In this document: positions 11,100-31,235 of the stretch, one piece after another
How positions within the stretch are numbered: position 1 is the stretch's first letter
How the letters are laid out: each line of letters begins with the position of its first letter
Source of the DNA: a virus
Virus record (IMG/VR): IMGVR_UViG_3300029258_001887
Length of the DNA: 64,000 bases
Strand: one strand, 5' to 3'
Translations under genes and position numbers: made by a program
Notes under the pieces: model-generated
Database searches by the model: none
Told to the model about the DNA's origin: nothing
What the model saw: only the letters and a program-made list of their open reading frames with translations

Positions 11100-12007
11100 T
11101 ACTCGTCTCCCTTCTGTTCCTTCATCTTCCGCATCTCTGTTGCGGCAGCAAGCGCGTCCTCGTAGGACAACGATTGCAGATTGACATCACCCGTTTGGTC
11201 GTTGAGTTCGTATTCGATTCCGAGTCCATCCAACACGTCCGAAATCTTGAAGCCGTGGCGGTCAGATATCAGACGAATCATGCTGATCTGGCTGGTGTGG
11301 ATCGGACCACCCTTTTGGATATCCGCAGCGGTCGCTACGGTCTTGCTCACCTCTTCAGCAGCCACTACACGCCGCAGACACAGGGCGTTGCGATACATCC
11401 TGCCTTTGGCCCGTGTGTCGGCCATAGCCACCAGATACGTGGCGTAGTCCTCAAAGCAGTTCTCGCTGTGTGCGTCGGCCAGGGCTTCGAATCGCTTCTC
11501 CCTGCCTTCGGGGGTTAGAAATACACCCCACGCTTTTGCACATGCGCGGAATCGGTTGTCCTCGGTAGGCGCAGCAAGCAGATCGCAGCCTTCCTCGATC
11601 AGTTCCCCGACGAGTTCGCCCGCGACACGCCTGAGCCCTTCGACCCGTGGATTCTGCCCATCCACTTCATCTTCCAGGAACTTCCCCAGCACATACTGAG
11701 TCCATCCCGGATCGCTTGGTGTTGGAGGATCAAGCTTTTCCGGCTGAGGTTCACCAGTGTCGGCCCCCTCATCTGTTGTGTCAGGCCCAACGGCAACGCC
11801 CACATCGTCATCTTCCTCAACAGAAGATAGAATGGCAAGACCTTCCTCGCCCTTTTTGTGGGCCTGAAGCTTGGCAAGCAACTCTGGTCGCTTGAGCTTT
11901 TTGCCGTCTGTGTCCAACAACTGCTCTTCCGTATAGCCGAGAGCCAATAGTGCATCCTTGAGTTCTTTCTTCCCCATCCGAGTTGGTGGTTTCGTCTCAG
12001 TCGTCAT
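11099..12007 (-). CDS. Rad52/Sak-like single-strand annealing protein (putative)
   Basis: AMADTRAKGRMYRNAL...VAAEE helix motif typical of Rad52-like annealases. Confidence 0.5.
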   Translation of the reverse strand: MTTETKPPTRMGKKELKDALLALGYTEEQLLDTDGKKLKRPELLAKLQAHKKGEEGLAILSSVEEDDDVGVAVGPDTTDEGADTGEPQPEKLDPPTPSDPGWTQYVLGKFLEDEVDGQNPRVEGLRRVAGELVGELIEEGCDLLAAPTEDNRFRACAKAWGVFLTPEGREKRFEALADAHSENCFEDYATYLVAMADTRAKGRMYRNALCLRRVVAAEEVSKTVATAADIQKGGPIHTSQISMIRLISDRHGFKISDVLDGLGIEYELNDQTGDVNLQSLSYEDALAAATEMRKMKEQKGDE

Positions 12008-12593
12008 TCTTCATCTCCGTTAACACAAACTTCGACAGTGCTTCGGCATCGCAGTCGGGGATTACCTCAGAACAAACCTTGATGCCAAATTCTTCTTCAA
12101 TCAGTTCCATGTGAGACTCGTGTCTCACAATGACTCGTACCCTTGGGTCACAAAATGCAGGTTCCAGTTCTGCGGGTTCAATGTGTGATTTGCCGATGAA
12201 TTCTGGATCGAAAGCATAGTGATAAACGATCGGTGCATTGCTGGCCAACGCCTCGATTGTAGTTCCAATACTTGTTGCGATGAGTGGATAGTGATGCCAT
12301 CTGACCAGATCGGAAACACCGAAAACTGGGCATAGAGGCGGTAGACATGAGGGGATCAGGTGTTGAGTGAAGATGCAAATGTCGAGACCCGCATATGTTT
12401 TACATAGTCGGTTGATTGAATTGAGCCCCAAGTATGTTAAATGAGACACCGCTAGGTGGTTGAAAACAAACCCGACCAGTGCTTGATCATCATCTAGCTT
12501 GAGACCAAGCTTAGCCATTTCTTCGGCAGCACTTGCCTTTCTTTGGACGGCTTCCTTGTGCTTGATGTTTTTCTGCTTTTTTTTCTTAGCCAT
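11997..12593 (-). CDS. hypothetical protein in glycosyltransferase cluster
   Basis: ORF overlapping both neighbours; no firm motif. Confidence 0.5.
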   Translation of the reverse strand: MAKKKKQKNIKHKEAVQRKASAAEEMAKLGLKLDDDQALVGFVFNHLAVSHLTYLGLNSINRLCKTYAGLDICIFTQHLIPSCLPPLCPVFGVSDLVRWHHYPLIATSIGTTIEALASNAPIVYHYAFDPEFIGKSHIEPAELEPAFCDPRVRVIVRHESHMELIEEEFGIKVCSEVIPDCDAEALSKFVLTEMKNDD

Positions 12594-13356
12594 TCGGAGC
12601 ACCTCTGCGCTGAGCCGCCATTTGCTTTGCTGCCGTCTCACACTGAGCAATAGATTGTTTAGTTGCTGCGTCTAGTTCACAAACGATATTGTGGTGTAGT
12701 GGTGCTGGTATGTGATAGATTAACCCAATTTCTGATATCCGAAGTAGCATGTCGTAATCGTCTCGAATTGGCATCTGAGCATTGAAACCGTTTTTGAGTT
12801 TAGGGAATAGTTGTGGACGCATCAGAAAGTTTCGGTCATAGGGGAATCCAGCCAAGAGTCTTTGCATGTCAAAAGAGCATCGGAACACTCTCTCTACTCT
12901 GCCATCGGGATGATGGTTATCGCAATCGCTCACGACACATGCAACTGATGGTTGTGTGCTGCAAACTCTAATCGCCTGTGCAATTTTGTCTGGTGCGTAC
13001 CAGCTTGTTGGGTCCATGAAACCAAACAGGGTAACACCCTGCCACTTCATTTGTAGTGCAACGTTCAGTGTGTCACCAATGGTGCTGAGTCTCTTTCGGA
13101 ATATTTTGACCGGTGTCCCATCAAGCTCACCGTCAAATTGCGGCGGCATTCCTGTTTGTTCGTCGATGGTGACAGGTTCGGCACCGAGCAATTTGCACAA
13201 TACATCATAGGTGCCGTCTGTGCTGTCATTGTCTCCGACGATGATCTGATTGGCCGGGCGGATACCCTTGCTTACTGATCGCAAGGCACGTTCGATTGTT
13301 TTGGCGTTATTGTGGGTTGCAATCACTACTGTTACGTTTTCTTTGTCTTTTATCAT
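12586..13356 (-). CDS. glycosyltransferase family 2
   Basis: VTVVIATHN...IERALRSV...IIVGDNDSTDGT N-terminal GT-A motif. Confidence 0.85.
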   Translation of the reverse strand: MIKDKENVTVVIATHNNAKTIERALRSVSKGIRPANQIIVGDNDSTDGTYDVLCKLLGAEPVTIDEQTGMPPQFDGELDGTPVKIFRKRLSTIGDTLNVALQMKWQGVTLFGFMDPTSWYAPDKIAQAIRVCSTQPSVACVVSDCDNHHPDGRVERVFRCSFDMQRLLAGFPYDRNFLMRPQLFPKLKNGFNAQMPIRDDYDMLLRISEIGLIYHIPAPLHHNIVCELDAATKQSIAQCETAAKQMAAQRRGAPNG

Positions 13357-14117
13357 ATCAACCAACAATCCGTGCAAAACCACGTAAGTCCCATCTCCGT
13401 CTCAGCTTCTTCTTTCCTCAACTGTGTCATGAATGGTTCCGCCTGGGGAGAAGTCATTAGTGCTCGATAGGGTGCGGTGATAAATAAACCATAATGAAGT
13501 TGAAGAGGTGCTATCGCGGTAGTTCCTATGGTAAATGGGAATGACCAATGGATTACGCGACTTGGTACGTGCTGAACCATTTTAGCAAAAATCTGGAAAT
13601 TTCTGAGTGCATTGCCAGCCGGAATTGCCATGAAAAACGGAGACTTCACTTGCTTGGACAGCCTGCGGATCGTATCACCTCGCTGGTCAATCGATTCATG
13701 TAATGCACTGCTGTCAACCACAATTTCTACCGGCTGCTTTTTGGTTTTGAGATACTGTAGTGCGAGGTTCTGTCTTGCCCCAAAGCCGGTTACATCCATG
13801 ATGATAACTTTGCCGGTGTATGGCACATACCAATCCTCATCTAGCGTTTTTCGCAAATCGTCGATGGTGTTTCTACCTTCATCGAAGAATACCAGAAGGT
13901 CCATTTTGAGAGCCCGTTCCTCAATGACTTTCTGGTACAACTTACCCAAATCTGTGGTGTTCTGTTTTTTAGCCCACTTGTGGCTCCGACACATTCGGCA
14001 GTATCCCGGAGCGAATGCCTTGCCATCCTTGATGGCGCATAGTTGGTGTAGAGTACACCCCTTGCCCCGATCATCTTTGTGTAAAAAACAACAGCCTTCA
14101 CATCCGGTTGTTATCAT
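13353..14117 (-). CDS. hypothetical protein with Cys-rich N-terminus, possible degenerate GT-A fold
   Basis: CEGC...C...C...CRMC N-terminus; coupled to the GT2 gene. Confidence 0.5.
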   Translation of the reverse strand: MITTGCEGCCFLHKDDRGKGCTLHQLCAIKDGKAFAPGYCRMCRSHKWAKKQNTTDLGKLYQKVIEERALKMDLLVFFDEGRNTIDDLRKTLDEDWYVPYTGKVIIMDVTGFGARQNLALQYLKTKKQPVEIVVDSSALHESIDQRGDTIRRLSKQVKSPFFMAIPAGNALRNFQIFAKMVQHVPSRVIHWSFPFTIGTTAIAPLQLHYGLFITAPYRALMTSPQAEPFMTQLRKEEAETEMGLTWFCTDCWLI

Positions 14118-14584
14118 TTCACCGCCTCGACATAAATGGCCACACCCTCGTATCTCTTAACAGAAATGGTCAGCCCAACCTCCTGTAGAACATCGAGCAG
14201 CGTAGCGGCGTCCATGATCGATAGACGAGAATCGCCAGCCTCTTGGGTACCAAGTACCATCTGCGAGAACTCTTGTAGATTGAACTGCCCTTGAGCAAAT
14301 GCTTTGGCGATAGCATGACAGTCTGGCATCAGAATCTTCAGCGTACCGCCAGCGGCTAGTTTTTGTGCCCAGTTGGCCAAAGCTGGCTGTACTGCGTTGG
14401 TCGGTAGGTATTCGATACAATCCAAAGCAATGATTTCTTCGACCGTGTTGTCTTCGGTCAACCAATCAAGTGTTTGGATGTCTCCCTGTCGGTATAGGTC
14501 CGGTGGTATTTGGCCCGGAGGCAGACGATCGATGTTGACGTATCCCGACCGAATATCGTTGCCACATCCTAGGTTTAATCGCAT
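14114..14584 (-). CDS. class I SAM-dependent methyltransferase
   Basis: RLNLGCG...GYVNID, L..GG.L.I.PD motifs. Confidence 0.8.
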   Translation of the reverse strand: MRLNLGCGNDIRSGYVNIDRLPPGQIPPDLYRQGDIQTLDWLTEDNTVEEIIALDCIEYLPTNAVQPALANWAQKLAAGGTLKILMPDCHAIAKAFAQGQFNLQEFSQMVLGTQEAGDSRLSIMDAATLLDVLQEVGLTISVKRYEGVAIYVEAVK

Positions 14585-14596
14585 AACTTTCTCCAA

Positions 14597-14770
14597 TTAA
14601 ATACGTTTCCATGTTTTCCTATTAACAATATTTTTGATAGTTGGTTGCTGAACTTCAAACATCGATGCCAATTTTCGTTGTGAATATTGTTTTTGCCCAG
14701 AAGATAATATCAATGCATATAATCTTCGTATCTCTAGAACTTGTTTTTCTGTATTAAATCCTATACCCAT
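14597..14770 (-). pseudogene. HNH homing endonuclease remnant (C-terminal HTH only, 57 codons)
   Basis: AT-rich gap translates as ...TEKQVLEIRRLY...YSQRKLASMFEVQQPTIKNIVNRKTWKRI*, like the C-termini of 43606..44124 and 45067..45627; no HNH core. Confidence 0.7.
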
Positions 14771-15780
14771 CTACCTGCGGGGCATCTAGCCACTTTCCAA
14801 AATGCCTCATTCCATTCGTCAAGAAAACGTTGCTGACCGAATGTTTCCAGCACAGTTTTTCTACCGGCAGCGCCAATCTCACGGGCCATATCCTGGTCCG
14901 CGATCAACTCCTGTAGCCGCTCTTTCATGGTGACCGGATCGTTTGTGATAAAACCATTCACCCCATCTTCGATGAATTCAGGGATTGATGTTGTCGCTGT
15001 TGTGACAATAGGACAACCCACAGACATCGCTTCCAGCAGAGAGAATGGGCAAGACGACCAAAGGGTGGTGTTCAAGAACACGGATGCGTGGCGGTAAAGT
15101 TCCCGTAAGTGATCAGCGCTATCAGCCATCTTTGAGAAGCCGGGTGTTTCTCCCCACGGGTTGACTTCGAGCCCCTGTGTGACTTCTTTCCATAGGGAAA
15201 ATCCACATATCCTGTCACGATTGATGTAATCCCAAACGGCGGTCATCACCTTGCCGTCTCCACCGATCCATCCATCCCAGTAGTCTGTGTCAATGCCGTG
15301 ATGAATGATTTGCACGTCCGGGTCGTTGACATCATGGAACCATGCCCCAACCGAGAATCTGGCCACGAAGATGTTGTGATCGCATTTGAGGTGACCGATT
15401 CGCTCTGTTGTGGTATCGTCCCAGTCAGGCCACGGAAGCGTGTGTTCCATTTGTAGCAATGGACAGCTAAGTTGGGCTGCAATCTGAGACATAATGGGAT
15501 AGTGATCAACCCTGTTCTGCGACAACACCAAGTCGAATGCCAAATCTGTTTTGAGTTGCTGTGGTATATCTCTGCCACTCAACACAAAGAAGTTGGGCGG
15601 CATTGGTCTTTCCTTGACATCCCACGGGTGGAATTTTGGATGATTGAGCATAAAGAAGTTGTGCCCTGTTCTGGCCAGCGTGGCGCTATAGGCTTCGTGA
15701 TTATTCGCGTACAGGATATTCAAGGGACGGCTTTCGTCCCTATTGATGCTTCTCAGTGCAGTTGAAAGTGGTGCTGCCAT
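14761..15780 (-). CDS. glycosyltransferase family 4 (GT-B)
   Basis: IIHHGID, PFSLLEAMSVGCPIVTT, IEDGVNGF. Confidence 0.9.
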   Translation of the reverse strand: MAAPLSTALRSINRDESRPLNILYANNHEAYSATLARTGHNFFMLNHPKFHPWDVKERPMPPNFFVLSGRDIPQQLKTDLAFDLVLSQNRVDHYPIMSQIAAQLSCPLLQMEHTLPWPDWDDTTTERIGHLKCDHNIFVARFSVGAWFHDVNDPDVQIIHHGIDTDYWDGWIGGDGKVMTAVWDYINRDRICGFSLWKEVTQGLEVNPWGETPGFSKMADSADHLRELYRHASVFLNTTLWSSCPFSLLEAMSVGCPIVTTATTSIPEFIEDGVNGFITNDPVTMKERLQELIADQDMAREIGAAGRKTVLETFGQQRFLDEWNEAFWKVARCPAGRWV

Positions 15781-16959
15781 TTATGCCTCCAGGAGTTCTC
15801 TTGCTATCGCACCTACTCGTTGGTAACTGAAGTTGGCAGCGCGTTCGCGGGCCGCTTTCTGCCGTCGATCTATCGATTCCTCATTCCATTCTTTGTAGGC
15901 TTGCCTCATGCAGTGGATCAGGTGTTCCATGTCTGGATCGAACCATAGTTCGTCGCCAGTGTAAAGGTCTGGGAAACTGTCTGTGTGTCCGAAACATGGC
16001 GTCAGTTGTCCTCTGACCAACCAGCCACAATCAATCTCACCCGGCCACTTGAATCTGCGGGTCTCTGGTTCCCAGTATTCCGCAGCCTGTGGATACGTCA
16101 ATTCCGGGAATGATCCCCAGTTGCTAAGTATTACTGGATTGCCAAACCCCATTGCGTCATGCGCCGGAATGCCCCAGGCTTCACCATGGCTCGCCAAAAC
16201 GAAAACGTCGCAAGCTACGTGAAGTTGATCAAGCTTCTGATCCGGCAGGAAATCGGTGATACAAGCTACGGGTGGATAGTACGGATGTCGGACATATGTG
16301 TGCAACGACTTTTTCACGTCGTCGATTGTTGACCGCAACAATTCGGTTGCTTCATCCGGGGATTTGCCAGGGACGCTGGTTTTGATGACGAGTGCCACAT
16401 CGTCCCTGAGACTGAATGCTGTGTAGAACGCCCTCAAGACCGCTACCAGATTCTTGCGACGAGTCATCTCTCCGACCACATAAAACACGCACTTGTTTTT
16501 GAGCTTCTTGACTTCCAGCGGTGGAGGGGGATTGTCAAATCTAGTCGTGTCACAAGCACATGGGAAAATCTTAACTGGCACAGAGACATTGCTATCCTTC
16601 ACTGCTTGGGCATTCTGTATCGATGGCACCCATATTTCGTCCATCAGATTACAACAGTGTCCCCAATTCGACCTGCTAAAGTGGGTCGTTTCCCAGTCGA
16701 ACATGCCTATGTTTCTAACACCAGCCTTGTATTCGAACTGGTGCGGCAATACGTGCTGAACGACAACATCCACGTTGTCGGTTGTTTTACGTTCAAGGTG
16801 CTCAACTCTCTTGGCCAGTTCATGGTTGCTATGCGGAGACAGTTTGATAGCTCTCGCTACGACATCTATACCACCAGCTTCCATGGCGAGCATGTTATGA
16901 ATAGCTTGGTTGGCATAGCCGGTACCATCACGATATACAGACAGGTATGCTACCTTCAT
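15781..16959 (-). CDS. glycosyltransferase family 4 (GT-B)
   Basis: RRKNL, DVFVLASHGEAWGIPAHDAMGFGNPVI. Confidence 0.9.
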   Translation of the reverse strand: MKVAYLSVYRDGTGYANQAIHNMLAMEAGGIDVVARAIKLSPHSNHELAKRVEHLERKTTDNVDVVVQHVLPHQFEYKAGVRNIGMFDWETTHFSRSNWGHCCNLMDEIWVPSIQNAQAVKDSNVSVPVKIFPCACDTTRFDNPPPPLEVKKLKNKCVFYVVGEMTRRKNLVAVLRAFYTAFSLRDDVALVIKTSVPGKSPDEATELLRSTIDDVKKSLHTYVRHPYYPPVACITDFLPDQKLDQLHVACDVFVLASHGEAWGIPAHDAMGFGNPVILSNWGSFPELTYPQAAEYWEPETRRFKWPGEIDCGWLVRGQLTPCFGHTDSFPDLYTGDELWFDPDMEHLIHCMRQAYKEWNEESIDRRQKAARERAANFSYQRVGAIARELLEA

Positions 16960-19838
16960 TATATCACCGTCACGTTTACTTGGTCCAGGGTCTCGCGTTT
17001 CAGGGATGCCAAGCGTTTTTCTTCGACGGCATTCGCCTGTTGTACCATCCCAACGAAGTGATCGACAAAATCTTTTCGGTTAAATGGGACACGTCGATCG
17101 CCAACGGTTTTTGAACCACTATTTAGGGACTTGAGCCATTCACCAGCAAAGTGGGTGCGCAGCATGTCGGGGCGATTCCACACTTTGCCGATCACCCAAT
17201 TGACAAATTCGCTATTGTTCATGTCGTTGCTTGGTGGTACTAAATTGGGATGATGGGCACGCGAGGTTGGGCACAGCCAAGTTGTTTGCTGATCCTTGAT
17301 GGCGGTTTCACGTATGACTTGACCCCAGATAGCAGCAGTCCTCTCCCACCCACGACGACGCATCGGCTGGTCTTGTCCGTAGGTCGGGACCGCTTCCTCG
17401 ATGTACGCCCTGGTCTGCCTTGCTTTTTCGTCTCGCACAGCTTCACTTTGTTTAAGGAATCGATCCAGCTTGCTAACAAAATCGGTGTTGCTTGGCAGTG
17501 CTCGTCTTTGCTCCGTTTCGATAATGGCTTCCCAGAAGAATCTCTCAACCTCGATCGGGATCGCTGTTGGACTATCCAGATGATCTTCCATCGCCGAGTA
17601 GCGGACAGCCATTGTTGGCACACCACACGCCTGGGCTTCTGTCAGCGGCATTCCCCACCCCTCGCAGATGGAATACTGGACATACAGGTCGAACGTCTTC
17701 ATAATATCAGCCAAGACGTTACGAGGACATGAATGGTTGGCGTTGGGCGGATGCGCTGCTAGCTTGCCACACTTACGACACACCATCATTTCGCCAGAGA
17801 AGAAAGATGGATAGGCAGTCTGGCAATTGCTGCACAGATAGGTCATGATTACCTTGTTCCCGATTTTGAAGTCTCGGATAGCTTTGCCGATGTCATACCC
17901 AACATCCGGGTAGCTGGTGTGCAAATACAGGAAAGTGCGTCGCGCCAGGTCTACATGCCCCTTGCTTTTCGATTGGTGCAACCACTTGCCGAAAGCCTCG
18001 ATCAGATCGTAATACAGCTTACGTTTTTGGTTTCTCATGACCGTACCCACAATTAACGATGTGGGATCGATACCGAGCCGAGCCTTGTGTTGCCGTTTGT
18101 CCTCTGGTGGCTTGAACATTTCGAGATCGGCACCTGGGGATGCGATTGTGACCAGATCGGTGCCACGTCTACCAGTTCGCTTCAGAAGGTCCATTCCATA
18201 TTCGGAGTACGTAAGGATGCGGTCGCACTGACGATATGAGTCCAGCCATAATTCTCGTTGTGGTTCACCGTCAATAGTCGGCATCCAGATAAATGAGAAA
18301 TTCTGACGGAAAGGCGAACGCAGAACAAATTCGTCCATCCACCAGTCTCGAATTCCGCAGTTATGTACAGCAAATCCTGTCACATAGCTATTATCATTTT
18401 CTACTTCTAAATTATATACTTGACCTCTGTATGGTTCTGTTCTTACTCTTCGAATTGGAACAATAATGTAATTCTCATTTATCCATCCGACACTCCCTTT
18501 GTCTATCCATTTGGGGTTATCCGATTTTCTCGAAGGTAATTCAAAATGTTTGGTAATAAACCCATGAGCAATACGTGCGTATTGTCCATAACATTCAATT
18601 TCAAATGATGTGGGCTTATTAAGTTTTCTGGCAATAGATGTTTTTACACCCAATCTTGCAAATAATTGTCTGATTTGTCTTGCTAACACATTGGAGACAG
18701 TAGAACAAGAAACTGTATCACTTTTATAACACCCATCTCCTTTTATATATCCACTAAGGAACTCTTCTAGGAATTTATCTCGTTGGGTAGTATACACAAA
18801 TTCTGGTATATGTTTTTCGCGCGCATTTTCACCAAACCAATTTTTGAACAATTCTTCAAGTAATACAGAGTTGAATCTTACATTTGAACAATTCTTGTTA
18901 GTGAATACTTGACCGTCTATTTTGAAATATTTTGACATCAATCGTAAAACATCTTCTATATATTCTTTCTCATTTACATTAAAAGAAAACTGCACACCCC
19001 TTCCTGAACCAGAACCTTCGGCACAATAATAACCTAGTAATCTACCAAAATCGCTTGAATACTGTATAAATTCAGGTATGCCGTTATCCCTTTCAAAGTT
19101 TTCATGACCTACTGGATAAGCAAATCCATCCTTGGTTATAAATTGCTTCAAAAAATGAGTAATTGAAATGTCTTGAGATGTCCAAACATTCGGCCTATAT
19201 ATAGGAATCAATACGTAGTCGCCTTGGCACAGGTCTTTCGCTTCTACAAATTCAGCATCTTCGGTGTTGTATCTCGACTGTATATCTCTTTGTTTCCATG
19301 TGCGTTTTTTGCTTTTTATGGCTAGAATGGGATGGTTGGGCGTAAACGTATAACACTGATTGTCATTATGTGGGTATATTTTCACCACAATGCCATTGTG
19401 TTGACTGCGCATGGTACGAATAACTCGACATTCTTTCCCAGTGTGAGAAATAACCGTGTCACCTACACTGATATCTTCGATATTTCTAACACCGTTTGGC
19501 GTTTCGACTTTTGTTTCAGGAGGAACACAAACAATGTCAGGCTTGAAGTCCAGGCACACATCGTCGAATCGCCATTCGCCAAATTGGTTGGTCTGTTGCG
19601 ACATGTACTTCTGCATTGCTTGCTGATTACTGCGAGCAGGTGCTACTGGATAAAACTTCCACGGCACTTGTTGACAACGTGGGTCGTCATCGTGGGCATA
19701 GCTTCCGAGTTCAGCAATTTCGAACTCACCTGTGGCATGTAGTCGTTTGATCACCTCATGCCAATAGGTACTAAAACCAGTGGCGAGGAAGTTTGCTTCA
19801 CCGATGAACAAAACGCGACGTTTGCGGTCAGATTCCAT
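16959..19838 (-). CDS. glycosyltransferase family 4 containing an intein
   Basis: MRNQKRK, DLYVQYSICEGWGMPLTEAQACGVP; interrupted at FKPDIV|CGIRD. Confidence 0.9.
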   Translation of the reverse strand: MESDRKRRVLFIGEANFLATGFSTYWHEVIKRLHATGEFEIAELGSYAHDDDPRCQQVPWKFYPVAPARSNQQAMQKYMSQQTNQFGEWRFDDVCLDFKPDIVCVPPETKVETPNGVRNIEDISVGDTVISHTGKECRVIRTMRSQHNGIVVKIYPHNDNQCYTFTPNHPILAIKSKKRTWKQRDIQSRYNTEDAEFVEAKDLCQGDYVLIPIYRPNVWTSQDISITHFLKQFITKDGFAYPVGHENFERDNGIPEFIQYSSDFGRLLGYYCAEGSGSGRGVQFSFNVNEKEYIEDVLRLMSKYFKIDGQVFTNKNCSNVRFNSVLLEELFKNWFGENAREKHIPEFVYTTQRDKFLEEFLSGYIKGDGCYKSDTVSCSTVSNVLARQIRQLFARLGVKTSIARKLNKPTSFEIECYGQYARIAHGFITKHFELPSRKSDNPKWIDKGSVGWINENYIIVPIRRVRTEPYRGQVYNLEVENDNSYVTGFAVHNCGIRDWWMDEFVLRSPFRQNFSFIWMPTIDGEPQRELWLDSYRQCDRILTYSEYGMDLLKRTGRRGTDLVTIASPGADLEMFKPPEDKRQHKARLGIDPTSLIVGTVMRNQKRKLYYDLIEAFGKWLHQSKSKGHVDLARRTFLYLHTSYPDVGYDIGKAIRDFKIGNKVIMTYLCSNCQTAYPSFFSGEMMVCRKCGKLAAHPPNANHSCPRNVLADIMKTFDLYVQYSICEGWGMPLTEAQACGVPTMAVRYSAMEDHLDSPTAIPIEVERFFWEAIIETEQRRALPSNTDFVSKLDRFLKQSEAVRDEKARQTRAYIEEAVPTYGQDQPMRRRGWERTAAIWGQVIRETAIKDQQTTWLCPTSRAHHPNLVPPSNDMNNSEFVNWVIGKVWNRPDMLRTHFAGEWLKSLNSGSKTVGDRRVPFNRKDFVDHFVGMVQQANAVEEKRLASLKRETLDQVNVTVI
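18360..19529 (-). mobile_element. intein with LAGLIDADG homing endonuclease (390 aa)
   Basis: Starts CVPPETKV; block B FTPNHPI; LLGYYCAEGS and FLSGYIKGDG; ends VYNLEV...VHN before Cys+1; DNA is AT-richer than the flanks. Confidence 0.93.
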
Positions 19839-22802: not shown

Positions 22803-22808
22803 ACAAAA

Positions 22809-23636
22809 TCAGAAATTTTCGTACGCGCGTGCGATTGCTGCAAGGATGCCACCGATCTGTGGGGACATGGCCGATAACTGTCGGAACAGAGGTGTCTTGA
22901 CAGCGGCCAAGATTTCTGGCTTATGGTTCCGATAACCTTTGGCACCCTGGAGTCCCCTGATGCCACCACATTCGGCCAGCCGAATATGCGTTCCATGATG
23001 GTTTGATGTTGCCAACGAGGGCCAGTATGTTTCCGATAGGTTGGCTGGTGGTTCCCCAAGGCTTGATTCCAAGACCATGTGCAGTAGGAGTTGTTCGTTG
23101 AAGCCCTGTTCAGGAAGGCGAATTTGACCGGCCTTGAGCATTGGGCGATACTTGTTAATCATGGGCCGCATCGCTGCGAACCATTCTCTTGGCTTGATGA
23201 CATGGATGCCGCTCATCCGTCTCGGCCCGGCCTGCGGCGGTCTGATGAAATTACTGTACGGGATTCCTAGCTGGTCACAATGTGCGAGATGCTGATCCAT
23301 GTACGGTGGAGTCTCAACATAGGTTGCCATATCGACATCGCCGATAGACATGCAGTCGTACTGTTCGAAGGCTGGCTCGAAGGTTAACCACCGGAGGCAT
23401 TTGATTGTATTGGCGTCCGTATGTGTGTATTCTGGAAAGGCTCGCTCTCGCACCTCGAAGTTGCCCGACAGCAAAGTGAGCATCTGGCGGATGTTGTCTG
23501 CCAATGCTACGTCAAGCAGCACAAGCTTGTGGGCTTTTGGGTATGCTCTGTTGAGGAAATACAGGAACCATGGGACATATTTTTGATATGGCCGGTTGGC
23601 TACTGTCATGAAGCACATCTTGCTTTCATCAGGCAT
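22809..23636 (-). CDS. putative GT-A fold glycosyltransferase
   Basis: IGDVD (DxD), NEQLL; cluster context. Confidence 0.5.
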   Translation of the reverse strand: MPDESKMCFMTVANRPYQKYVPWFLYFLNRAYPKAHKLVLLDVALADNIRQMLTLLSGNFEVRERAFPEYTHTDANTIKCLRWLTFEPAFEQYDCMSIGDVDMATYVETPPYMDQHLAHCDQLGIPYSNFIRPPQAGPRRMSGIHVIKPREWFAAMRPMINKYRPMLKAGQIRLPEQGFNEQLLLHMVLESSLGEPPANLSETYWPSLATSNHHGTHIRLAECGGIRGLQGAKGYRNHKPEILAAVKTPLFRQLSAMSPQIGGILAAIARAYENF

Positions 23637-24570: not shown

Positions 24571-25310
24571 TAGCTTCCCACCGCCCTTCTGAACATTTGT
24601 CCGAGCAGAGATGGAGCTTCGAGCAGTTGTTGACGATTCATCCGCAGAACTGGGCTATTGTATTGCCTGAACATTTCGTGGAATAACATGCAGCCATATG
24701 CGTCGTTGCCGCAATACTTATCTATCGGTTCTTTCCCGTCGAACCTAAATGCTTCCCACGAGGCGATTGGCATCAGCAGCCGATGGTCGAGATGATGGTA
24801 CTTGCGCCCCTTGACAGCTTGTCTGACCGTACCCGGACCCAGCGACCCCCACTTGAAGATGTGTCCAGGTGGATGGAGACTCAAAGCGTACTCAATCAGA
24901 GATACGGCTTTGGTGATCGTCGCACCGCCTTTGGTGGACAAAAGGAATCCGCTTTCTGGCTGCCCCGGAGGGAGTGTCGGTGATGCTGTGGCGACCAAAT
25001 CGATTTCCCCCTGCAAGAGATCGGCCAATGGCTTGAGGCTTCTGAACAGTATCAGGTCGCTGTCCAGCCAGATGCCGCCGTGTTCTCTAAGCAGCATGTA
25101 TCTCAGGAAGTTGGACTTGTTGTTGATTTGAGCTATCTGGAAAAAGCTCTCTGGGATGCTGGGTAGAAACTGCCTTACGTTCTCTGTGGTTACAATATTG
25201 ATTTCAAAATCCTCTCCACAATGCTTGCGGATAGTTTCCCAGCATAGCTGTATGTATGCTGGTGCTTCTGTCCGTCCTGGCGGATTGTCCCAGTATAGCC
25301 AAATATGCAT
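24570..25310 (-). CDS. GT32/capsular polysaccharide synthesis-type glycosyltransferase
   Basis: IWLYW, LRYMLLREHGGIWLDSD. Confidence 0.85.
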   Translation of the reverse strand: MHIWLYWDNPPGRTEAPAYIQLCWETIRKHCGEDFEINIVTTENVRQFLPSIPESFFQIAQINNKSNFLRYMLLREHGGIWLDSDLILFRSLKPLADLLQGEIDLVATASPTLPPGQPESGFLLSTKGGATITKAVSLIEYALSLHPPGHIFKWGSLGPGTVRQAVKGRKYHHLDHRLLMPIASWEAFRFDGKEPIDKYCGNDAYGCMLFHEMFRQYNSPVLRMNRQQLLEAPSLLGQMFRRAVGS

Positions 25311-25319
25311 TCTCTTCTC

Positions 25320-25895
25320 CTAACTGACTACCGAAAACAGCACCATGTGTCTGTGGTCCCCCATATAGACATGGACGTTGTTGATGCCCTCGGCCTTTAT
25401 TCGCTCTCGAAGTTCCTTTTCTTTGTGCTGCTGCGAAGGACTTTTCCTTACGTCGAAATCAACAAAGGTGGCTTTAACCTTCCTGTATTCACCCGTATCT
25501 AATAGGTCGCTGATAATATCGCATTCGCTACCTTCGCAATTCAACTTCAAGAACACTTCGTCATCTTCCGACATGTTCTCTCGGAACCAATCTGACGCCT
25601 TGACAAAACGACATCGCGTCACACGAGGCTCCGGGTTGCAGGTTGTTTGATAGTCGGCGTGTACTGTACCCCCTTGACTGCCTTCGTTGTGCAAGTCCAT
25701 CTCACACTCACTTGACCATAGACCGACCTTGACAATCGTCACCTTCGGGTTGGTTCCGAACTTGCGATCCAAGATATCGTGACACAAGGGCGATGGGTCA
25801 AATCCGAAGATGTGATCCACCTTGAATCTGGGTCTAAGTAGAAGTTCGATTGTCTGCCCATGATGGGCACCTATGTCCAGAAAGATACGCTTCAT
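25320..25895 (-). CDS. FkbM-family methyltransferase
   Basis: FLDIGAHHG, FLKLNCEGSE. Confidence 0.85.
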   Translation of the reverse strand: MKRIFLDIGAHHGQTIELLLRPRFKVDHIFGFDPSPLCHDILDRKFGTNPKVTIVKVGLWSSECEMDLHNEGSQGGTVHADYQTTCNPEPRVTRCRFVKASDWFRENMSEDDEVFLKLNCEGSECDIISDLLDTGEYRKVKATFVDFDVRKSPSQQHKEKELRERIKAEGINNVHVYMGDHRHMVLFSVVS

Positions 25896-25896
25896 T

Positions 25897-26742
25897 CTAC
25901 TTCCTCCAGTCTGTGTAAACAAAGCGGGCCAAAAAACAATCGTCGTGGATGTGGAAGGCGAATTTCAGTTTCGGGAGTAATCCTGTGACCCTCAATTGTT
26001 TGAGTGCAAATTCATGATTGGAAGGAACACCTTGCCGCAGAAAGGTACCAAGATTGTCGTACAAATCGCCGAACTTGTCCATAATTTCAGAGCCGCCGAA
26101 GAACCAATAGTCTGCCAGTGCCGGGTAATGTGGGTCATGTGGGTATCCAATATGAACATGCCTGAGTGTTGGATCATTCTTCTTGTTCCATCCGTGGAAG
26201 AACCAATCTTCGTGTCTGATACCATGCCCATTTGGAAGCTTCATGACACACCAGTTGGATGCATAGAAGTGGTTCGGGTCAAACTTGCTGAAATAGACAT
26301 CCACCATCCATGCAACATCGAAGCGGCCAATCATTACCATGTCGTATCGAAAGCCATGTTCCTCTTCGTATTGCCGTTTGAGGTGCATACACTTTTGAAC
26401 GCTGTACCATCGGGCGGCGGTAATCTGAGTTTTGGATGTTTCGCCATCCGGGTAACCTACGTCCACCTTGCCCCCAACGAAACTGAATTTGGGGTCTGGT
26501 TCAAAGATCGCTGCCTTGGGTTGGTAAGCATCCCTTAGTTCTTGCTCCACTTGGACACTTGGGGTGTGCATGAAAACATCCACCTGATCATTCTTGCTAA
26601 ATAGATGTCGTTGATAGTGTTCTAGCCCCTTGGTCCATTCCACCGGAGTTCTTTTGCCGTTATGTCCGTTCCACATTTGGCCACCCACGACCTTCTTGCC
26701 TGGGTGCATTGCCATTCCACTCAAACAAAGTGCGACTCTCAT
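25897..26742 (-). CDS. putative glycosyltransferase-like protein
   Basis: MRVALCLSG, DVFMH, YDMVMIGRFD, DYWFFG pattern seen in glycan-locus proteins. Confidence 0.55.
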   Translation of the reverse strand: MRVALCLSGMAMHPGKKVVGGQMWNGHNGKRTPVEWTKGLEHYQRHLFSKNDQVDVFMHTPSVQVEQELRDAYQPKAAIFEPDPKFSFVGGKVDVGYPDGETSKTQITAARWYSVQKCMHLKRQYEEEHGFRYDMVMIGRFDVAWMVDVYFSKFDPNHFYASNWCVMKLPNGHGIRHEDWFFHGWNKKNDPTLRHVHIGYPHDPHYPALADYWFFGGSEIMDKFGDLYDNLGTFLRQGVPSNHEFALKQLRVTGLLPKLKFAFHIHDDCFLARFVYTDWRK

Positions 26743-26751
26743 GCGATCCTC

Positions 26752-27345
26752 CTACTCCAAGACGCGGACTATCTTGCGCTCTTCGCCAGATGGTGTATGA
26801 TCGACAAATGGTACAATTTCACAGCGACGACCGAATGCTGCTACCCATTCGTTGAACGCTCGCTGTTCATGATCATCATACTGAGCATCGTGTTTGTAGA
26901 ACCATTCGTCGAAGACGATGATCGTGCCCTCGACGATGTAGTCGTTCAAGGCCCACAACACCTCTTTGGCAGAGCTATAGAGGTCAGAATCAACGTGCAA
27001 TAACGCAATTGGTTGTGCTACTTTGAGATGGTCTGGCAATGTATCCGAAAACCATCCGGCGTAGAACTTTACATTTGGAACATTGGGGATAACACCGTTG
27101 GTCGAAAAGTATTCTGGTGGAACCACAACGACCCCGTGCTTGTCTATCCAAGCCTCTGGTAGTCCCACGAATGAGTCAAACCCAAATACCTGGAATGAAT
27201 CATCTAGTGTCTGTCGTATAACCCTGATTGTCTCACCACGACAAACACCAAATTCCAAGACGTGCTTGTACCTGCTATCCAACAACGTTAGTCCATGCTG
27301 TAGGCTAGAGCGTATCACGGCCACACCTTTCTTTGTATGTTTCAA
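26752..27345 (-). CDS. TylF/MycF-like O-methyltransferase
   Basis: LEFGV..G, GFDSFVGLPE, GWFSDTL, LHVDSDLYSS, IVFDE. Confidence 0.85.
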   Translation of the reverse strand: MKHTKKGVAVIRSSLQHGLTLLDSRYKHVLEFGVCRGETIRVIRQTLDDSFQVFGFDSFVGLPEAWIDKHGVVVVPPEYFSTNGVIPNVPNVKFYAGWFSDTLPDHLKVAQPIALLHVDSDLYSSAKEVLWALNDYIVEGTIIVFDEWFYKHDAQYDDHEQRAFNEWVAAFGRRCEIVPFVDHTPSGEERKIVRVLE

Positions 27346-27973
27346 ACAACTGGCTGAAACTAGCCAGAAATTCCTGGTCCTCCGTTGAGACTTCGAATGG
27401 TTGGTTGTTTAGAGGGTGCCAGCCCACTGTTTTAGTTACTGGGTCCAGAGATTTTCTTTTCCATCCCAACCGTTGCTGAACACTGTCCAAAACAACTTCC
27501 TGATCCTGTTGCATCTGTTCGTATGTGATAGTCCAATCTGCGTATGTTAACCAAAACATGTTGGTCAATAGCCACAGTTCGGGTGGCGTTGCTAATTGAT
27601 CTTGTATCCAACTTCTCCTGGGTTGAGATACGATCTTGTCGTCGAAGTAGATTTTGCATTTACCAATCACTCTTGGCATCTTCCTGTATGGCGTTCGGAT
27701 GAAATCCGAGAAGTCAGCCAGCTTGATACCATTACGTTCTCTCATTCTGAACACAGACATCAAAACAGGTTGTATGCTGCGACTACAGTGGAGGATGTGA
27801 GCACGCTTATAATGCTCTCGTATCTCTGTGTCGAACTTGTGGCCACCAAACATATCCATATACTTGGTATACGGAGTGACAAAACTATCGAAGATAGTTC
27901 TAAGCACCCAATGTGTTCCACTGCGTGGGTGAGTCACTAGCCGCAATCTGTCTTTCTTAAATTTCCGTGCCAC
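27305..27973 (-). CDS. PAPS-dependent sulfotransferase
   Basis: 5'-PSB-like loop THPRSGTHW; R......S 3'-PB-like segment; ITYEQM. Confidence 0.65.
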   Translation of the reverse strand: MARKFKKDRLRLVTHPRSGTHWVLRTIFDSFVTPYTKYMDMFGGHKFDTEIREHYKRAHILHCSRSIQPVLMSVFRMRERNGIKLADFSDFIRTPYRKMPRVIGKCKIYFDDKIVSQPRRSWIQDQLATPPELWLLTNMFWLTYADWTITYEQMQQDQEVVLDSVQQRLGWKRKSLDPVTKTVGWHPLNNQPFEVSTEDQEFLASFSQLFETYKERCGRDTL

Positions 27974-29543
27974 TGTTTTCCTCCAAGAGATTGTGCAACA
28001 TCAACTTACCAAGGTGGAACAACATCTCGGCGTATGGTTGGTGATGCAATGCTGCGATATTTAGATATATCAGTGCTGTCAACACCTTGACCTTGTGACA
28101 ATCATAATGATGCCGTGTCAAATATCGTTGTAACCATGTTTCACAATCGATGAGAATTTGTCGCCTCAGAAAATCGAAGTTGACTGTAGTTCCATCGATA
28201 TCTATTTCGTATAAACCACGGTGGATAATGCCGTGAGAAACTATCAGGCCATGCCACAGTTTTGCCAGATCGTAGTATATGTCGCCATAGTCACTGAGTC
28301 CACCAAAGTTCTGTCGCCAGTCGAGCAAGCTGAAGGCACTGCCTGTGTCGATCGTGTTCTCGAAGTGGAGATCACCATGAAAGCGAACCGGAATACCTTC
28401 GGATATCCATGTCCAATCGACATGTTCCAGCAACTCTGCCGCAGATGGTACATTCACTCCGTTAATGCACTGCGCCGAATCCTCGTATCCGAATCGGTCG
28501 AAATAAGCCTGCACTCGTTGAATGGTTTTGTCTTGGTAGAATTTGCGGTATGCCTCTCTTACCTCCACAGTCAATAATTGTCTATCACCCCATAGTCCCT
28601 CCAGCCACGCCAAAAACTCTTTGAACCGCAGCATGGTAACTGTGTCGGATAGCACCCTACCCTCAACCATAGGATAACAATACATGTTGGCGGTGCTGCC
28701 CTCAATTTCGGGGACGTATCCATCGAGCGAAGTCTTGGCCCTGGCAACTCTTTGAGCAATGAAATCCCGATCTGTTGAGAACTTCACCACCCTACCATTG
28801 CAGAACCATATATGCTCCTGAGCCTTCGGTAGAATATTGGGATCATCTTCTGTCCCGAACACCTGATTAGCGTACGACAGGGCCTCTACTGTCCCTGTAT
28901 CGTACCATGTGAACTTGACACCCTTGACCGACTGTTGCTTGACCATCGAAGCCAGGGCAAATGACTCCCCCTGGTTCGTCGTGCCCTCTTGGAGCGCTCT
29001 ATCCATAGCCGCCCAGAAGGCTTTGTAGTCGTTGACGCCGCAGATGCCAATGTACGCCTTCGCCTCTGGGTGGACCCCCTTTTCCCCCAAGTCCTTGACA
29101 ACGGTATCATCCCACGAGTCAGCTACGACAGAACGATAATCGTTACCAGCCCGAATGTCTGCATATCCTATCCAGTCATGATCGGGGCGAGGGATACTTT
29201 CTGTGACGATAGCGTCGTTGGTAAAGAAGATGAATGGACATTGCAACACATCTCGGTAGTCGCATAAATCTGCGGTTAGACCTTTTCGGTTAGCCCAGAT
29301 GAATGTGAAATTGCGATCTGGGTATGCTAGCGTGAGAAACTCTTGGACCAATTCCCCCTTGTGTCCCAGGTCGATGATGAGTTCCACATCTGGCGGAAAC
29401 TTCTCGACAATGTAGGAAATAATTGGACGGTTGGCCACAGGAACCAATGTCTTGTTAACATGGTCACAGTGGTTTCCCAATCGAGAACCTACTCCAGCGG
29501 TTGGAACTAGAACTTTGTACGACTTATTTTCTTCCGTAGTCAT
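27957..29543 (-). CDS. nucleotidyltransferase fused to APH/choline-kinase-like phosphotransferase
   Basis: AGVGSRL...K.L, WYDTGT; C-terminal FHGDLHFEN, LLDWR, GDIYYDLAKL. Confidence 0.85.
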   Translation of the reverse strand: MTTEENKSYKVLVPTAGVGSRLGNHCDHVNKTLVPVANRPIISYIVEKFPPDVELIIDLGHKGELVQEFLTLAYPDRNFTFIWANRKGLTADLCDYRDVLQCPFIFFTNDAIVTESIPRPDHDWIGYADIRAGNDYRSVVADSWDDTVVKDLGEKGVHPEAKAYIGICGVNDYKAFWAAMDRALQEGTTNQGESFALASMVKQQSVKGVKFTWYDTGTVEALSYANQVFGTEDDPNILPKAQEHIWFCNGRVVKFSTDRDFIAQRVARAKTSLDGYVPEIEGSTANMYCYPMVEGRVLSDTVTMLRFKEFLAWLEGLWGDRQLLTVEVREAYRKFYQDKTIQRVQAYFDRFGYEDSAQCINGVNVPSAAELLEHVDWTWISEGIPVRFHGDLHFENTIDTGSAFSLLDWRQNFGGLSDYGDIYYDLAKLWHGLIVSHGIIHRGLYEIDIDGTTVNFDFLRRQILIDCETWLQRYLTRHHYDCHKVKVLTALIYLNIAALHHQPYAEMLFHLGKLMLHNLLEENSGTEI

Positions 29544-29871
29544 CGCTCACCCTTATAACATCGTCTTGCTCTGGAGTAGACGCTTCTAGATAAATAGTAT
29601 CAGTTATCCCATACATACGGTGTGTTCTGCCTGCGGGAATTGTATAATGTTCTCCTGGCATTAATTGTATATCTTCCCAGATAGAATCTGAACCAGAAAA
29701 ATTAGTAGTAACGATTAGTATTCCACTTATTACTATAATAGTCTCGGTTTTGCGTTCATGATATTGTAAACTACAACGATTTCCAGCTTTCATAAATAAG
29801 CGCTTTACCATATAATTATTATTTACTTCTAACATTTCTTCCCTACCCCATGGCTTTTCAACGACTTTCAT
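29524..29871 (-). CDS. cupin (mannose-6-phosphate isomerase type II-like)
   Basis: VEKPWG, SLQYH..K.ET, HR, EAST...DDVIR..DDYGR. Confidence 0.85.
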   Translation of the reverse strand: MKVVEKPWGREEMLEVNNNYMVKRLFMKAGNRCSLQYHERKTETIIVISGILIVTTNFSGSDSIWEDIQLMPGEHYTIPAGRTHRMYGITDTIYLEASTPEQDDVIRVSDDYGRK

Positions 29872-30874
29872 TATCCCCCTCCAAAGCAAAAAGGTAGTGT
29901 TCGATGACCTTGGTTACTTCGTGGATAATTCCTTCGCGGACACTGATCTCTTTGGATAGCTGGTCGGCAAGTTCCTTGTATGCCGGTCCATTGAAGTGAT
30001 AGTGTCCCGCAACGAGTACGACCAACATCTGTTGTAGGGCATGGGACGCATTGACCCACTTTTTCCATCGGCCACCTTCGGTTACCTCATCGACAAATGG
30101 CTGTGTGTCTATCCCATATAGCAATGCCTGGGAAAGAATGTAGTTTGTCTGCACCACCCCAAGTTGCGGAGCTATGTTGACAGCATCTACAATCCCACGC
30201 CGTAGTTCTAGTTGTTCGCGGCTCAGATAATCGGCATTGTGTTCCTTGAGCTTGACCCCACACCCAGAGATTGCCCGATACATCTCGCCGACAGCATTGG
30301 CGTCAAATGTTCCTGTGTTGTGTGCTTCTCTGACGAGACTACCTGTTTGCACGACGTAGAAGACAGGGGTGGCGACCTGTTGGCACGCACGGACCCCAGC
30401 GACTATCTTGCCTGTGTCGGTCTCTGTGACGCCCACATTCTCATCGGTGCCGATCTCGAACATGACATTCGGGTTGATACCCAGAGCGAATTGCATCAAC
30501 TCGGTTGTGAGGCGTATCTTCTGATCGTGTTCAACCTGCATGTGGCACAGGTCTAAATGAATCAAATCAAAACCGTTCTCCAAATCACACCGGATGGTCC
30601 GTCGTGTTTGATCCAGGTCGTGTTCGGGTTTCAGTCCGAATCCAGGCCCACAATGGTCTCGGCATATTACAACGTTAGCTTGCGGATATGATCTGCGCAA
30701 ATGATCAATATACTCTGTGTATTGTGGGGTCGTGAATACGTATCCATGATCAGCGTCTACCTGATTGCGCGAACAGATGAGCATTAGTTGTACGCCAAAC
30801 TTGTGGGAATAGCGAAAAACCGCTTCGATGACTTCATTGCTCATTGGCCCGCACGCCAGACTAGATGTCAACAT
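29858..30874 (-). CDS. KbaZ/GatZ-like sugar-phosphate aldolase/epimerase (TIM barrel)
   Basis: SRNQVD...GY, RDHCGPG, GFDLIHLD, EIGTDE, KEHNADY, NIAPQLG. Confidence 0.7.
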   Translation of the reverse strand: MLTSSLACGPMSNEVIEAVFRYSHKFGVQLMLICSRNQVDADHGYVFTTPQYTEYIDHLRRSYPQANVVICRDHCGPGFGLKPEHDLDQTRRTIRCDLENGFDLIHLDLCHMQVEHDQKIRLTTELMQFALGINPNVMFEIGTDENVGVTETDTGKIVAGVRACQQVATPVFYVVQTGSLVREAHNTGTFDANAVGEMYRAISGCGVKLKEHNADYLSREQLELRRGIVDAVNIAPQLGVVQTNYILSQALLYGIDTQPFVDEVTEGGRWKKWVNASHALQQMLVVLVAGHYHFNGPAYKELADQLSKEISVREGIIHEVTKVIEHYLFALEGDNESR

Positions 30875-31235
30875 TTTCCATCCCCTTGTTTCGCTCGATG
30901 TTCACACACGCAGCCGTTTTACCCTTCCGGCCCGGTTTCACATCGTTAATAACCACACGCTGTCCTCTGGGTAAGTCCATAATCAGATGGTGATAGTAAA
31001 GCCCCGCTTCTCCTATCTGTTGTTCAGTCAGTTGTCGCAGACTCTCTGGCCGTCCCGTGGTCAGAACGACCGTATAGCCTTTGTAGGCCCACTGTTTGAA
31101 CGCCTCTCTGGCCCCAGGCAGTAACTCACATGGGTTGGTCAGTATTTCAGCTATATCCCCGTGGTGCTTGAAAACGCAACCATCCAGATCGCAAAATACG
31201 GTCTTGATATATACAGCATGATCAATCTGTGACAT
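30861..31235 (-). CDS. HAD-superfamily phosphatase
   Basis: FCDLDG, LTTGR, INDVK. Confidence 0.8.
   Translation of the reverse strand: MSQIDHAVYIKTVFCDLDGCVFKHHGDIAEILTNPCELLPGAREAFKQWAYKGYTVVLTTGRPESLRQLTEQQIGEAGLYYHHLIMDLPRGQRVVINDVKPGRKGKTAACVNIERNKGMENVDI

Follow-up and report, generated by a model that had tools for sequence, protein, structure and literature searches.

The gene array and its conserved core

An uncultured sediment phage of about 161 kb carries a cluster of about 18 genes predicted to assemble a methylated and probably sulfated glycan. The stretch of DNA analysed here (the window, 64,000 nucleotides (nt) from IMG/VR record IMGVR_UViG_3300029258_001887) comprises bases 73883–137882 of the 160,681-bp phage record, which is estimated to be 97% complete. 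On its minus strand, 25 co-oriented genes, almost all overlapping, run from 34666 to 10626. The array starts with a PD-(D/E)XK nuclease, the N-terminal half of DnaE, eleven sugar genes termed block B (31262–22809) and the C-terminal half of DnaE, and continues with a single-stranded DNA-binding protein (SSB), a sigma-like protein, the seven genes of block A (19844–11997), a 302-aa protein and a Whirly-like protein. Co-orientation and overlap, as well as the interleaving of the sugar genes with dnaE and ssb, had been read from the sequence in an initial annotation and hold for the whole array. The cluster consists of two units of opposite evolutionary behaviour, namely a fixed core (block A) and a swapped cassette (block B).

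These units were compared with those of 18 related IMG/VR loci (L003–L020), whose DnaE C-terminal halves share 56–92% identity with that of the window phage. Protein families were assigned with Pfam and NCBIfam at curated cut-offs, and weaker assignments were checked by hhalign, AlphaFold2 (AF2) models and Foldseek. Block A, as judged from these profiles, codes for three retaining glycosyltransferases (GTs) of family GT4, one GT2, a class I methyltransferase-like protein, and two proteins without a family match:

11997–12650, minus: 217-aa protein, last gene of block A, at the same position in 13 relatives; no family match
12586–13383, minus: GT2 (GT-A, inverting); PF00535, 35.4 bits versus a cut-off of 23.3
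13353–14117, minus: 254-aa Cys-rich protein; C6, C9, C21 and C40 invariant in 13 homologues
14114–14596, minus: class I S-adenosylmethionine-dependent methyltransferase-like protein, 160 aa; LNLGCG motif and profile comparison
14761–15780, minus: GT4a (retaining GT-B); PF13692/PF00534, E 1e-15 to 1e-16
15781–16959, minus: GT4b; PF00534, E 2.6e-11
16959–19844, minus: long GT4, 571 aa after splicing, whose gene is interrupted by an intein; Zn-ribbon insert, EX7E motif and an additional helical domain at the C-terminus; Pfam
18360–19529, minus: LAGLIDADG intein within the long GT4 gene, 390 aa (GT4 residues 106–495); Pfam LAGLIDADG_3, Hint_2 and Intein_splicing

The order of the block A genes is identical in all 18 relatives wherever the locus reaches this position. 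GT4a is as conserved among the relatives as the C-terminal half of DnaE (54–92% versus 56–92% identity), and the GT2 is kept in every relative that covers its position, at 50–92% identity. The GT4a profile matches TarM, BshA and PglA, and that of GT4b matches B736L of chlorovirus NY-2A (3oy2) and GlgM. The methyltransferase-like protein reached only E 0.07 with Pfam Methyltransf_25, which is below the cut-off, and an hhalign probability of 89% (E 2.2e-6) when compared with the Pfam-confirmed class I methyltransferases of the relatives. The 217-aa protein had no Pfam, PHROG or hhalign match, and no hhalign signal against GT4a. For the Cys-rich protein there was no match to PDB profiles, in Pfam or by hhalign, nor a signal against the GT2; its sole lead is a weak cluster of Atlas neighbours, of whose members 36% have a GT2 (score 0.86).

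The intein of the long GT4 has the attributes of class 1: a cysteine at position 1, a C-terminal His-Asn, a cysteine at position +1, Hint and LAGLIDADG domains, and a clean in-frame insertion with respect to intein-free homologues. Its junctions read PDIV|C...HN|C, and its G+C content is 0.358, as compared to 0.49–0.51 in the exteins. Across the family, the long GT4 has two intein sites, one after residue 105 and the other exactly at the catalytic EX7E motif (QYSI|CEG). The latter is filled in L005, L011, L014, L016 and L019, with both sites occupied in L014, and seven relatives have a long GT4 without any intein. Occupation of two sites, one of them at the catalytic motif, argues that this GT4 is an invariant and indispensable enzyme; together with the fixed gene order and the DnaE-like conservation, it suggests that block A as a whole is an indispensable core of the lineage. 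The AF2 model of an intein-free homologue (predicted local distance difference test score, pLDDT, 89.7) gave 3oy2, GlgM, MshA and PimB' as top Foldseek matches, and a CxxC...CxxC pattern is invariant in 30 homologues. The structural neighbours are all generic GT4 enzymes, none of which points to an acceptor, and a scan with the most distant homologue of the long GT4 returned no matches.

The exchanged cassette within split dnaE

Block B (22809–31262) lies between the two halves of DnaE, which form its borders:

20921–22768, minus: DnaE C-terminal half (finger and HhH), one cassette border; PF17657, E 2e-51, and PF14579
22809–23636, minus: 275-aa protein, homologues in the loci of 12 of the 18 relatives; no family match
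23629–24570, minus: NAD-dependent sugar-nucleotide 4-epimerase/dehydratase of the short-chain dehydrogenase/reductase type; PF01370, E 7e-62
24570–25310, minus: GT32-like DXD glycosyltransferase (Caps_synth/Gly_transf_sug); PF05704, E 4e-13, and PF04488, E 6e-8
25320–25922, minus: FkbM-family methyltransferase; TIGR01444, 51.6 bits versus a cut-off of 37.7
25897–26742, minus: DUF7796-family protein; PF25072 weak (E 0.002), but annotated on several homologues
26752–27345, minus: TylF-type O-methyltransferase; PF05711, 51 bits versus a cut-off of 23
27305–27973, minus: protein with the fold of 3'-phosphoadenosine-5'-phosphosulfate (PAPS)-type sulfotransferases; Pfam E 2.8e-4 (below the cut-off), motifs and fold
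27957–29543, minus: 528-aa fusion of a sugar-1-phosphate nucleotidyltransferase (N-terminal) and an APH-like kinase (C-terminal); NCBIfam RmlA/AglF/MurU and PF01636
29524–29889, minus: cupin related to the C-terminal domain of mannose-6-phosphate isomerase; PF01050, 44 bits versus a cut-off of 23.6
29858–30874, minus: GatZ/KbaZ-like TIM-barrel protein; PF08013, 31.6 bits versus a cut-off of 26.7, N-terminal third only
30861–31262, minus: small HAD phosphatase; PF00702, at the cut-off
31222–33561, minus: DnaE N-terminal half (PHP and palm), the other cassette border; PF07733, E 2e-63, and PF02811, E 2e-40

The start of the HAD phosphatase gene overlaps the stop of the DnaE N-terminal half by 41 nt. 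In 18 of 18 relatives dnaE is likewise split, and the gap of 5–12 kb between its halves is always filled with sugar-tailoring genes, the contents of which differ. These are invariably GTs, methyltransferases, radical-SAM enzymes and sugar kinases, with alternatives to the present set that include other GT2, GT-B, GT9-like and GT7C-like enzymes, many class I and FkbM methyltransferases, radical-SAM/SPASM proteins and a PfkB kinase. When the cassette types were placed on a tree of concatenated core proteins, seven changes were counted as compared to a mean of 7.1 after shuffling, and the sister phage L009, 89% identical in the core, carries a different cassette. The missing clustering on the core tree and the differing cassette of the sister indicate that block B is a hotspot of exchange. 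The sulfotransferase occurs in only three of the 19 phages (the window phage, L005 and L017), and the epimerase was found in none of the 18 related loci; both sulfation and the epimerase thus count as options of the cassette rather than traits of the family. Homologues of the GT32-like protein are present in the loci of 12 of the 18 relatives. Those of the 275-aa protein always lie in the half of the cassette proximal to the DnaE C-terminal half and adjoin it directly in most loci.

Profile, fold and motif tests gave a sugar-related assignment for 14 of the about 18 genes of the cluster. The GT2, three GT4, GT32, epimerase, class I, FkbM and TylF methyltransferases, sulfotransferase and precursor enzymes named in the initial annotation all found a family or fold assignment. 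The part of the 18-gene cluster which did not stand is a pair of further "GT-like" proteins (22809–23636 and 13353–14117), for which Pfam, PHROGs, PDB profile searches and hhalign returned nothing; for the former, hhalign against the GT32-like protein was likewise without signal. The PDB profile search with the DUF7796 protein had no matches.

Identification of 27305–27973 as a sulfotransferase is a prediction from motifs and fold. The HPRSGxHW loop, H45, R65 and S73 are invariant in 14 homologues; we take them, by analogy with the SULT motifs, to be the 5'-phosphosulfate-binding loop, the catalytic His (H45) and the 3'-phosphate-binding Arg/Ser (R65 and S73). All of the top 50 Foldseek matches of its AF2 model (pLDDT 86.8) are PAPS sulfotransferases, albeit with modest scores (E ~1e-3, TM-scores 0.4–0.57). 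No adenosine-5'-phosphosulfate kinase was found in the phage genome; PAPS would therefore need to be supplied by the host.

The four genes for the HAD phosphatase, the GatZ-like protein, the cupin and the nucleotidyltransferase-kinase are predicted, from their families and by analogy, to form a supply route for a nucleoside diphosphate (NDP)-sugar, and this activation set is present in a subset of the relatives. In the sequence of reactions that we infer, a ketose-phosphate would be converted to an aldose-phosphate by the GatZ-like protein and the cupin isomerase, then to a 1,n-bisphosphate by the kinase acting at C1, to a sugar-1-phosphate by the HAD phosphatase, and finally to the NDP-sugar by the nucleotidyltransferase. 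A kinase-nucleotidyltransferase fusion together with a small HAD phosphatase is the logic of AfhE/AfhF in UDP-arabinose synthesis and of NDP-heptose synthesis (PMC13326640), and the domain order of the fusion is that of AfhE. Its N-terminal NCBIfam matches to RmlA, AglF and MurU range from E 2e-7 to 7e-5, and the assignments of both domains are below curated cut-offs. With tblastn, the fusion matched Marine virus AG-345-E15 and, partially, Enterococcus phages, but neither AfhE nor phages of the RB69 or DLP3 type. The four activation genes recur as a unit in this unrelated Marine virus AG-345-E15 (L022, MH319741.1), which also has the DUF7796 protein. There they are part of a glycan island of more than 20 kb (MH319741.1, 2900–25300) that contains, besides the activation module and the DUF7796 protein, three epimerases, GT11, GT6 and GT4 enzymes, GHMP and APH kinases, and a carbamoyltransferase. 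The cupin gene of the window phage differs in G+C content from its neighbours (0.363 versus 0.48–0.50) and is less conserved among the relatives than the adjoining fusion (49–76% versus 64–84% identity), suggesting a recent replacement inside the cassette.

As for the origin of the genes, the best NCBIfam match of the epimerase is TviC (239 bits, under the equivalog cut-off), and its four best cellular matches, at 61–65% identity over the full length, are all metagenome-assembled genomes of Planctomycetota/Phycisphaerae, a single-gene lead to this phylum as the possible host. No cellular relatives of the GT32-like protein and of the nucleotidyltransferase-kinase fusion were found among the GTDB representatives. 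Since these two proteins lack close cellular relatives and block A is a core of the whole family, the cluster is not a recently captured host locus; the initial annotation had named a recent, intact lipopolysaccharide (LPS) or capsule locus of the host as the finding that would speak against a phage-owned pathway.

Site of synthesis and acceptor of the glycan

Membrane segments were not predicted in any protein of the cluster. In the 97% complete genome, no open reading frame exceeds three hydrophobic segments; the largest protein with such segments is the tape measure protein. Since there is no polytopic membrane protein, the phage encodes no phosphoglycosyl transferase, flippase, polymerase, ligase or Gtr component; the membrane proteins of Gtr-type seroconversion (GtrA, GtrB, GtrC, an O-acetyltransferase or a polymerase) are thus missing. 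The earlier statement that flippase, polymerase, export gene and membrane-bound GT are all absent is borne out, and the enzyme families together with the lack of membrane segments support the proposal of a soluble, phage-owned pathway for a methylated, probably sulfated glycan.

From these data we infer an order of steps and, above all, an acceptor. Block A would build a conserved core oligosaccharide, and block B would supply an unusual NDP-sugar and, in the window phage, add a GT32 step, a 4-epimerised sugar, O-methylations by the FkbM and TylF enzymes, and sulfation from host PAPS. The chain would be assembled in the cytoplasm, with the virion proteins of the phage itself, probably of the tail or fibre, as the likeliest acceptor, and each lineage would display the common core with its own exchangeable outer decoration. 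We tentatively favour this interpretation, i.e. a two-part, fully soluble glycan-assembly system which is owned by the phage family and glycosylates virion proteins in the cytoplasm, although we would put it at somewhat less than an even chance.

A virion acceptor is favoured by the self-sufficiency of the cytoplasmic system and by a core which is conserved like a structural or replicative function. There is precedent for glycosylation of virions by phage-encoded enzymes in mycobacteriophages (Freeman et al. 2023, as cited in PMC12619734) and by virus-encoded enzymes in giant viruses (PMC9614988). According to the account of Freeman et al. 2023 given in PMC12619734 and PMC12801897, soluble GTs of the mycobacteriophages Che8, Corndog and Myrna decorate the phages' own capsid and tail proteins in the cytoplasm without export machinery. 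Here, too, the GTs are phage-encoded and soluble, and an apparatus for export or for lipid carriers is missing. Mycobacteriophage glycosylation clusters reportedly comprise 2–4 genes, in actinophages and outside the replication genes. The present cluster differs in having about 18 genes, a family-wide core, a swap cassette in split dnaE, its own sugar activation and a sulfotransferase. The chlorovirus GT B736L, as the nearest solved neighbour of the long GT4 by modelled structure, may lend further support. Chloroviruses (PBCV-1, NY-2A) and Mimivirus resemble the phage in soluble GTs, sugar methyltransferases and NDP-sugar enzymes, and in the clade-specificity of the gene clusters (PMC9614988, PMC5408694). 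However, they are viruses of eukaryotes, the likeness of B736L to the long GT4 (14% identity) is that of the GT4 fold only, and no cluster organisation is shared.

As to possible sites on the virion, SG dipeptides are enriched in seven large plus-strand proteins (observed/expected ratio, O/E, 2.7, as compared to 0.95 in the remaining proteome), three of which are encoded in the tail module behind the tape measure gene. Two SG-rich proteins (35399–38515 and 33640–34857 of the whole genome, G000, equal to L062:2400–5516 and L062:641–1858) contain YWTD/LDL-receptor class B beta-propeller repeats, and in the 1038-aa one of these two SG recurs with a period of 14 residues between residues ~630 and 920.

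Several points weigh against the virion as acceptor. Part of the SG enrichment falls within the 14-residue structural repeat and need not mark sequons. The sugar genes are part of the replication module and run convergently to the tail genes instead of lying among them. Hardly any presumed virion protein, those of the tail region included, is recognised by PHROGs or Pfam; the Pfam model of the HK97 capsid gave no match. Moreover, the families GT4, GT2 and GT32 and matches of the TarM, PglA and WaaG type would fit lipid-linked or teichoic-acid acceptors equally well.

The last point leads to a serious rival, which we nevertheless consider rather unlikely: during infection, the phage might remodel a glycoconjugate of the host envelope. 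Its soluble GTs and tailoring enzymes would then modify, on the inner side of the membrane, a lipid-linked intermediate of the host, such as that of an O-antigen, a capsule, a teichoic-acid-like polymer or an S-layer glycan, and the flippase and ligase of the host would export the altered product, blocking superinfection or re-adsorption. TarM, PglA, WaaG and PimB', the PDB neighbours of the phage enzymes, act on acceptors of this kind, as do the enzyme families; a fast-swapping cassette could track the diversity of host glycans, and the epimerase looks recently acquired from Planctomycetota-like bacteria. The hypervariable islands of pelagimyophages and cyanomyophages, which are rich in GTs, are also usually interpreted as serving envelope remodelling (PMC7029224, PMC12801897). 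These islands, which include the "host recognition cluster" and the LPS-like genes of P-SSM2, S-SCSM1 and S-SCSM2R, hold up to 13 GTs together with epimerases and are non-syntenic; their function is unproven. Of our two blocks, only block B is such a non-syntenic GT and sugar island differing between close relatives. In the marine T4-like myophages the islands lie among tail-fibre genes without an invariant core operon, whereas the variable part of the present system sits between the two halves of dnaE in every relative, not in the structural module, and accompanies a strictly conserved operon of four GTs in a DnaE-using family unrelated to T4-like phages. Against an envelope acceptor, the phage lacks any membrane component and brings a complete sugar-activation route of its own, the GT32-like protein and the nucleotidyltransferase-kinase fusion have no close cellular relatives, and strict maintenance of block A across a divergence of DnaE down to 56% identity would need a host acceptor that is equally conserved.

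An all-soluble system rich in methyltransferases would also be compatible with some other cytoplasmic product or acceptor, for instance a free polymethylated oligosaccharide, a glycosylated host protein or a glycosylated tRNA-like RNA of the phage. A comparison may be drawn with the mycobacterial methylmannose polysaccharide, whose mannosyltransferase (7qsg) is among the structural neighbours of the long GT4. We regard this as improbable, as nothing specific speaks in its favour, the literature searched contained no phage precedent, and the need for a rapidly swapped outer decoration is hard to see.

The position of the cluster among replication genes is shared with systems of DNA hypermodification, which the initial annotation had raised as an alternative. 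The GTs would in this case glycosylate a modified base, as in T4, in RB69 and DLP3, or in clusters of a methyltransferase, 5mYOX and a GT, and the cassette would diversify the sugar to escape glycan-specific nucleases. The genes lie among dnaE, ssb, sigma and recombination genes, much as a-gt and b-gt of T4 lie beside genes 42, 43 and 55; the long GT4 has a Zn-ribbon insert; and phage DNA GTs derive from enzymes of the LPS and teichoic-acid type (10.1101/2023.12.21.572611). The bifunctional nucleotidyltransferase-kinase and the GmhB-like HAD phosphatase also follow the Afh pathway, which feeds the synthesis of arabinosyl-5-hydroxycytosine (PMC13326640), although an NDP-sugar supply of this type could serve any acceptor. 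However, known DNA glycosylation in phages starts from 5-hydroxymethylcytosine, 5-hydroxymethyluracil or 5-hydroxycytosine, which are made by ThyA homologues or by a methyltransferase and 5mYOX (PMC13326640; 10.1101/2023.12.21.572611). The 97% complete genome encodes ThyX and lacks a ThyA homologue, TET/JBP, a C5-methyltransferase and TGT/DpdA: searches with PF00303, PF12851, PF00145 and PF01702, each of which matched in control genomes, found none. In contrast to the DNA hypermodification systems, the cluster thus comes with no gene for a hydroxylated or deaza base, has no BLAST-level similarity to AfhE, and comprises far more GTs and tailoring enzymes; no DNA glycan in the literature searched takes as many as these eight or more GT and tailoring steps, which include O-methylation and sulfation.

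Restriction-site avoidance provides an indirect, sequence-based test of base modification. Of the six-base palindromes with at least ten expected occurrences, 14 of 60 are absent from the 160.7 kb, as compared to none of 4018 non-palindromes. The absent ones, GC-rich palindromes with 13–38 expected occurrences each, are ACGCGT, AGGCCT, CACGTG, CAGCTG, CCCGGG, CGGCCG, CTCGAG (27 expected), CTGCAG, GCCGGC, GGATCC, GGCGCC, GGGCCC, GTCGAC (38 expected) and TCCGGA. Per 50 kb, the O/E of palindromes is 0.59–0.77 with 16–18 sites absent; in the first 50 kb of T4, whose DNA contains glucosylated hydroxymethylcytosine, it is 0.94 and no site is absent. Avoidance of this strength implies that DNA carrying the sites is being cut, and as selection for avoidance acts only on cleavable DNA, genome-wide base modification is unlikely. 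The missing enzymes and the extreme site avoidance together weaken the hypermodification alternative to the point that we deem it very unlikely. Since site avoidance speaks only against blanket modification, a sparse or RNA-directed glycan is compatible with it: the four-GT operon might act on nucleic acid, at sparse DNA sites or on tRNA-like RNAs, through a linkage other than to a 5-hydroxymethyl or 5-hydroxy pyrimidine, with the cassette diversifying that glycan. We give this idea only a very slight chance.

While phage glycan islands and virion glycosylation are of already known kinds, what is new here is that a four-GT operon, invariant and invaded by inteins, is combined with a swap cassette held within split dnaE; the optional sulfotransferase and the cupin/GatZ sugar-activation module are new as well. 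The large GT sets of environmental phages are usually filed as "LPS-like auxiliary genes". The sugar genes of this family behave like an O-antigen locus of the phage itself, with a core that equals the replisome in conservation and has inteins at catalytic sites, and a decoration cassette that is exchanged between sisters while locked in an essential split dnaE. Should the glycan be attached to virion proteins, the system, with methylation and optional sulfation, would rank as the most elaborate for bacteriophage glycosylation in the literature searched, and would suggest diversifying selection on virion glycan "serotypes" in sediments. Targets for enzymology are the predicted clade of viral sulfotransferases and the putative cupin/GatZ route to an NDP-sugar, which has no close relatives in the cellular reference genomes scanned.

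Flanking genes and relatives

Three further genes of the array belong to the context of the two blocks:

10626–11099, minus: Whirly-like single-stranded DNA-binding protein, kept at the end of the array in relatives; PF08536, E 4.5e-4, under the cut-off
19828–20415, minus: sigma-70-family-like protein, 195 aa, part of the context and not a sugar enzyme; profile matches to SigA and FliA structures, E 3e-4 to 5e-2
20429–20854, minus: SSB; PF00436, E 2e-22

The stop of the sigma-like gene overlaps the start of the long GT4 gene by 17 nt, so that a phage sigma gene and the core glycan operon are probably transcribed together. Within the array, the junctions between genes are overlaps or gaps of at most 66 nt, with a single exception of 164 nt between GT4a and the class I methyltransferase-like gene. 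Scans for promoter and terminator consensus sequences gave counts no higher than expected from shuffled sequence. A terminator-like hairpin with a 13-bp stem, the sole strong candidate within 10000–29900, is located at 10465–10497, at the border between the minus-strand replication and glycan array and the plus-strand tail module.

Among cultured phages, neither megablast nor tblastn with the long GT4 or GT4a found close relatives. The "Moraphages", which have four core GT families (PMC12619734), use PolB and not DnaE, and were for this reason dismissed as possible relatives. Intein domains were not detected in the two DnaE halves of the window. In relatives, the DnaE C-terminal half contains extra inserts of 0.5–1 kb, which are probably inteins or introns; they occur in L009 (after aa 76), L012, L014 (two inserts), and in L017 and L019 (after aa 186).

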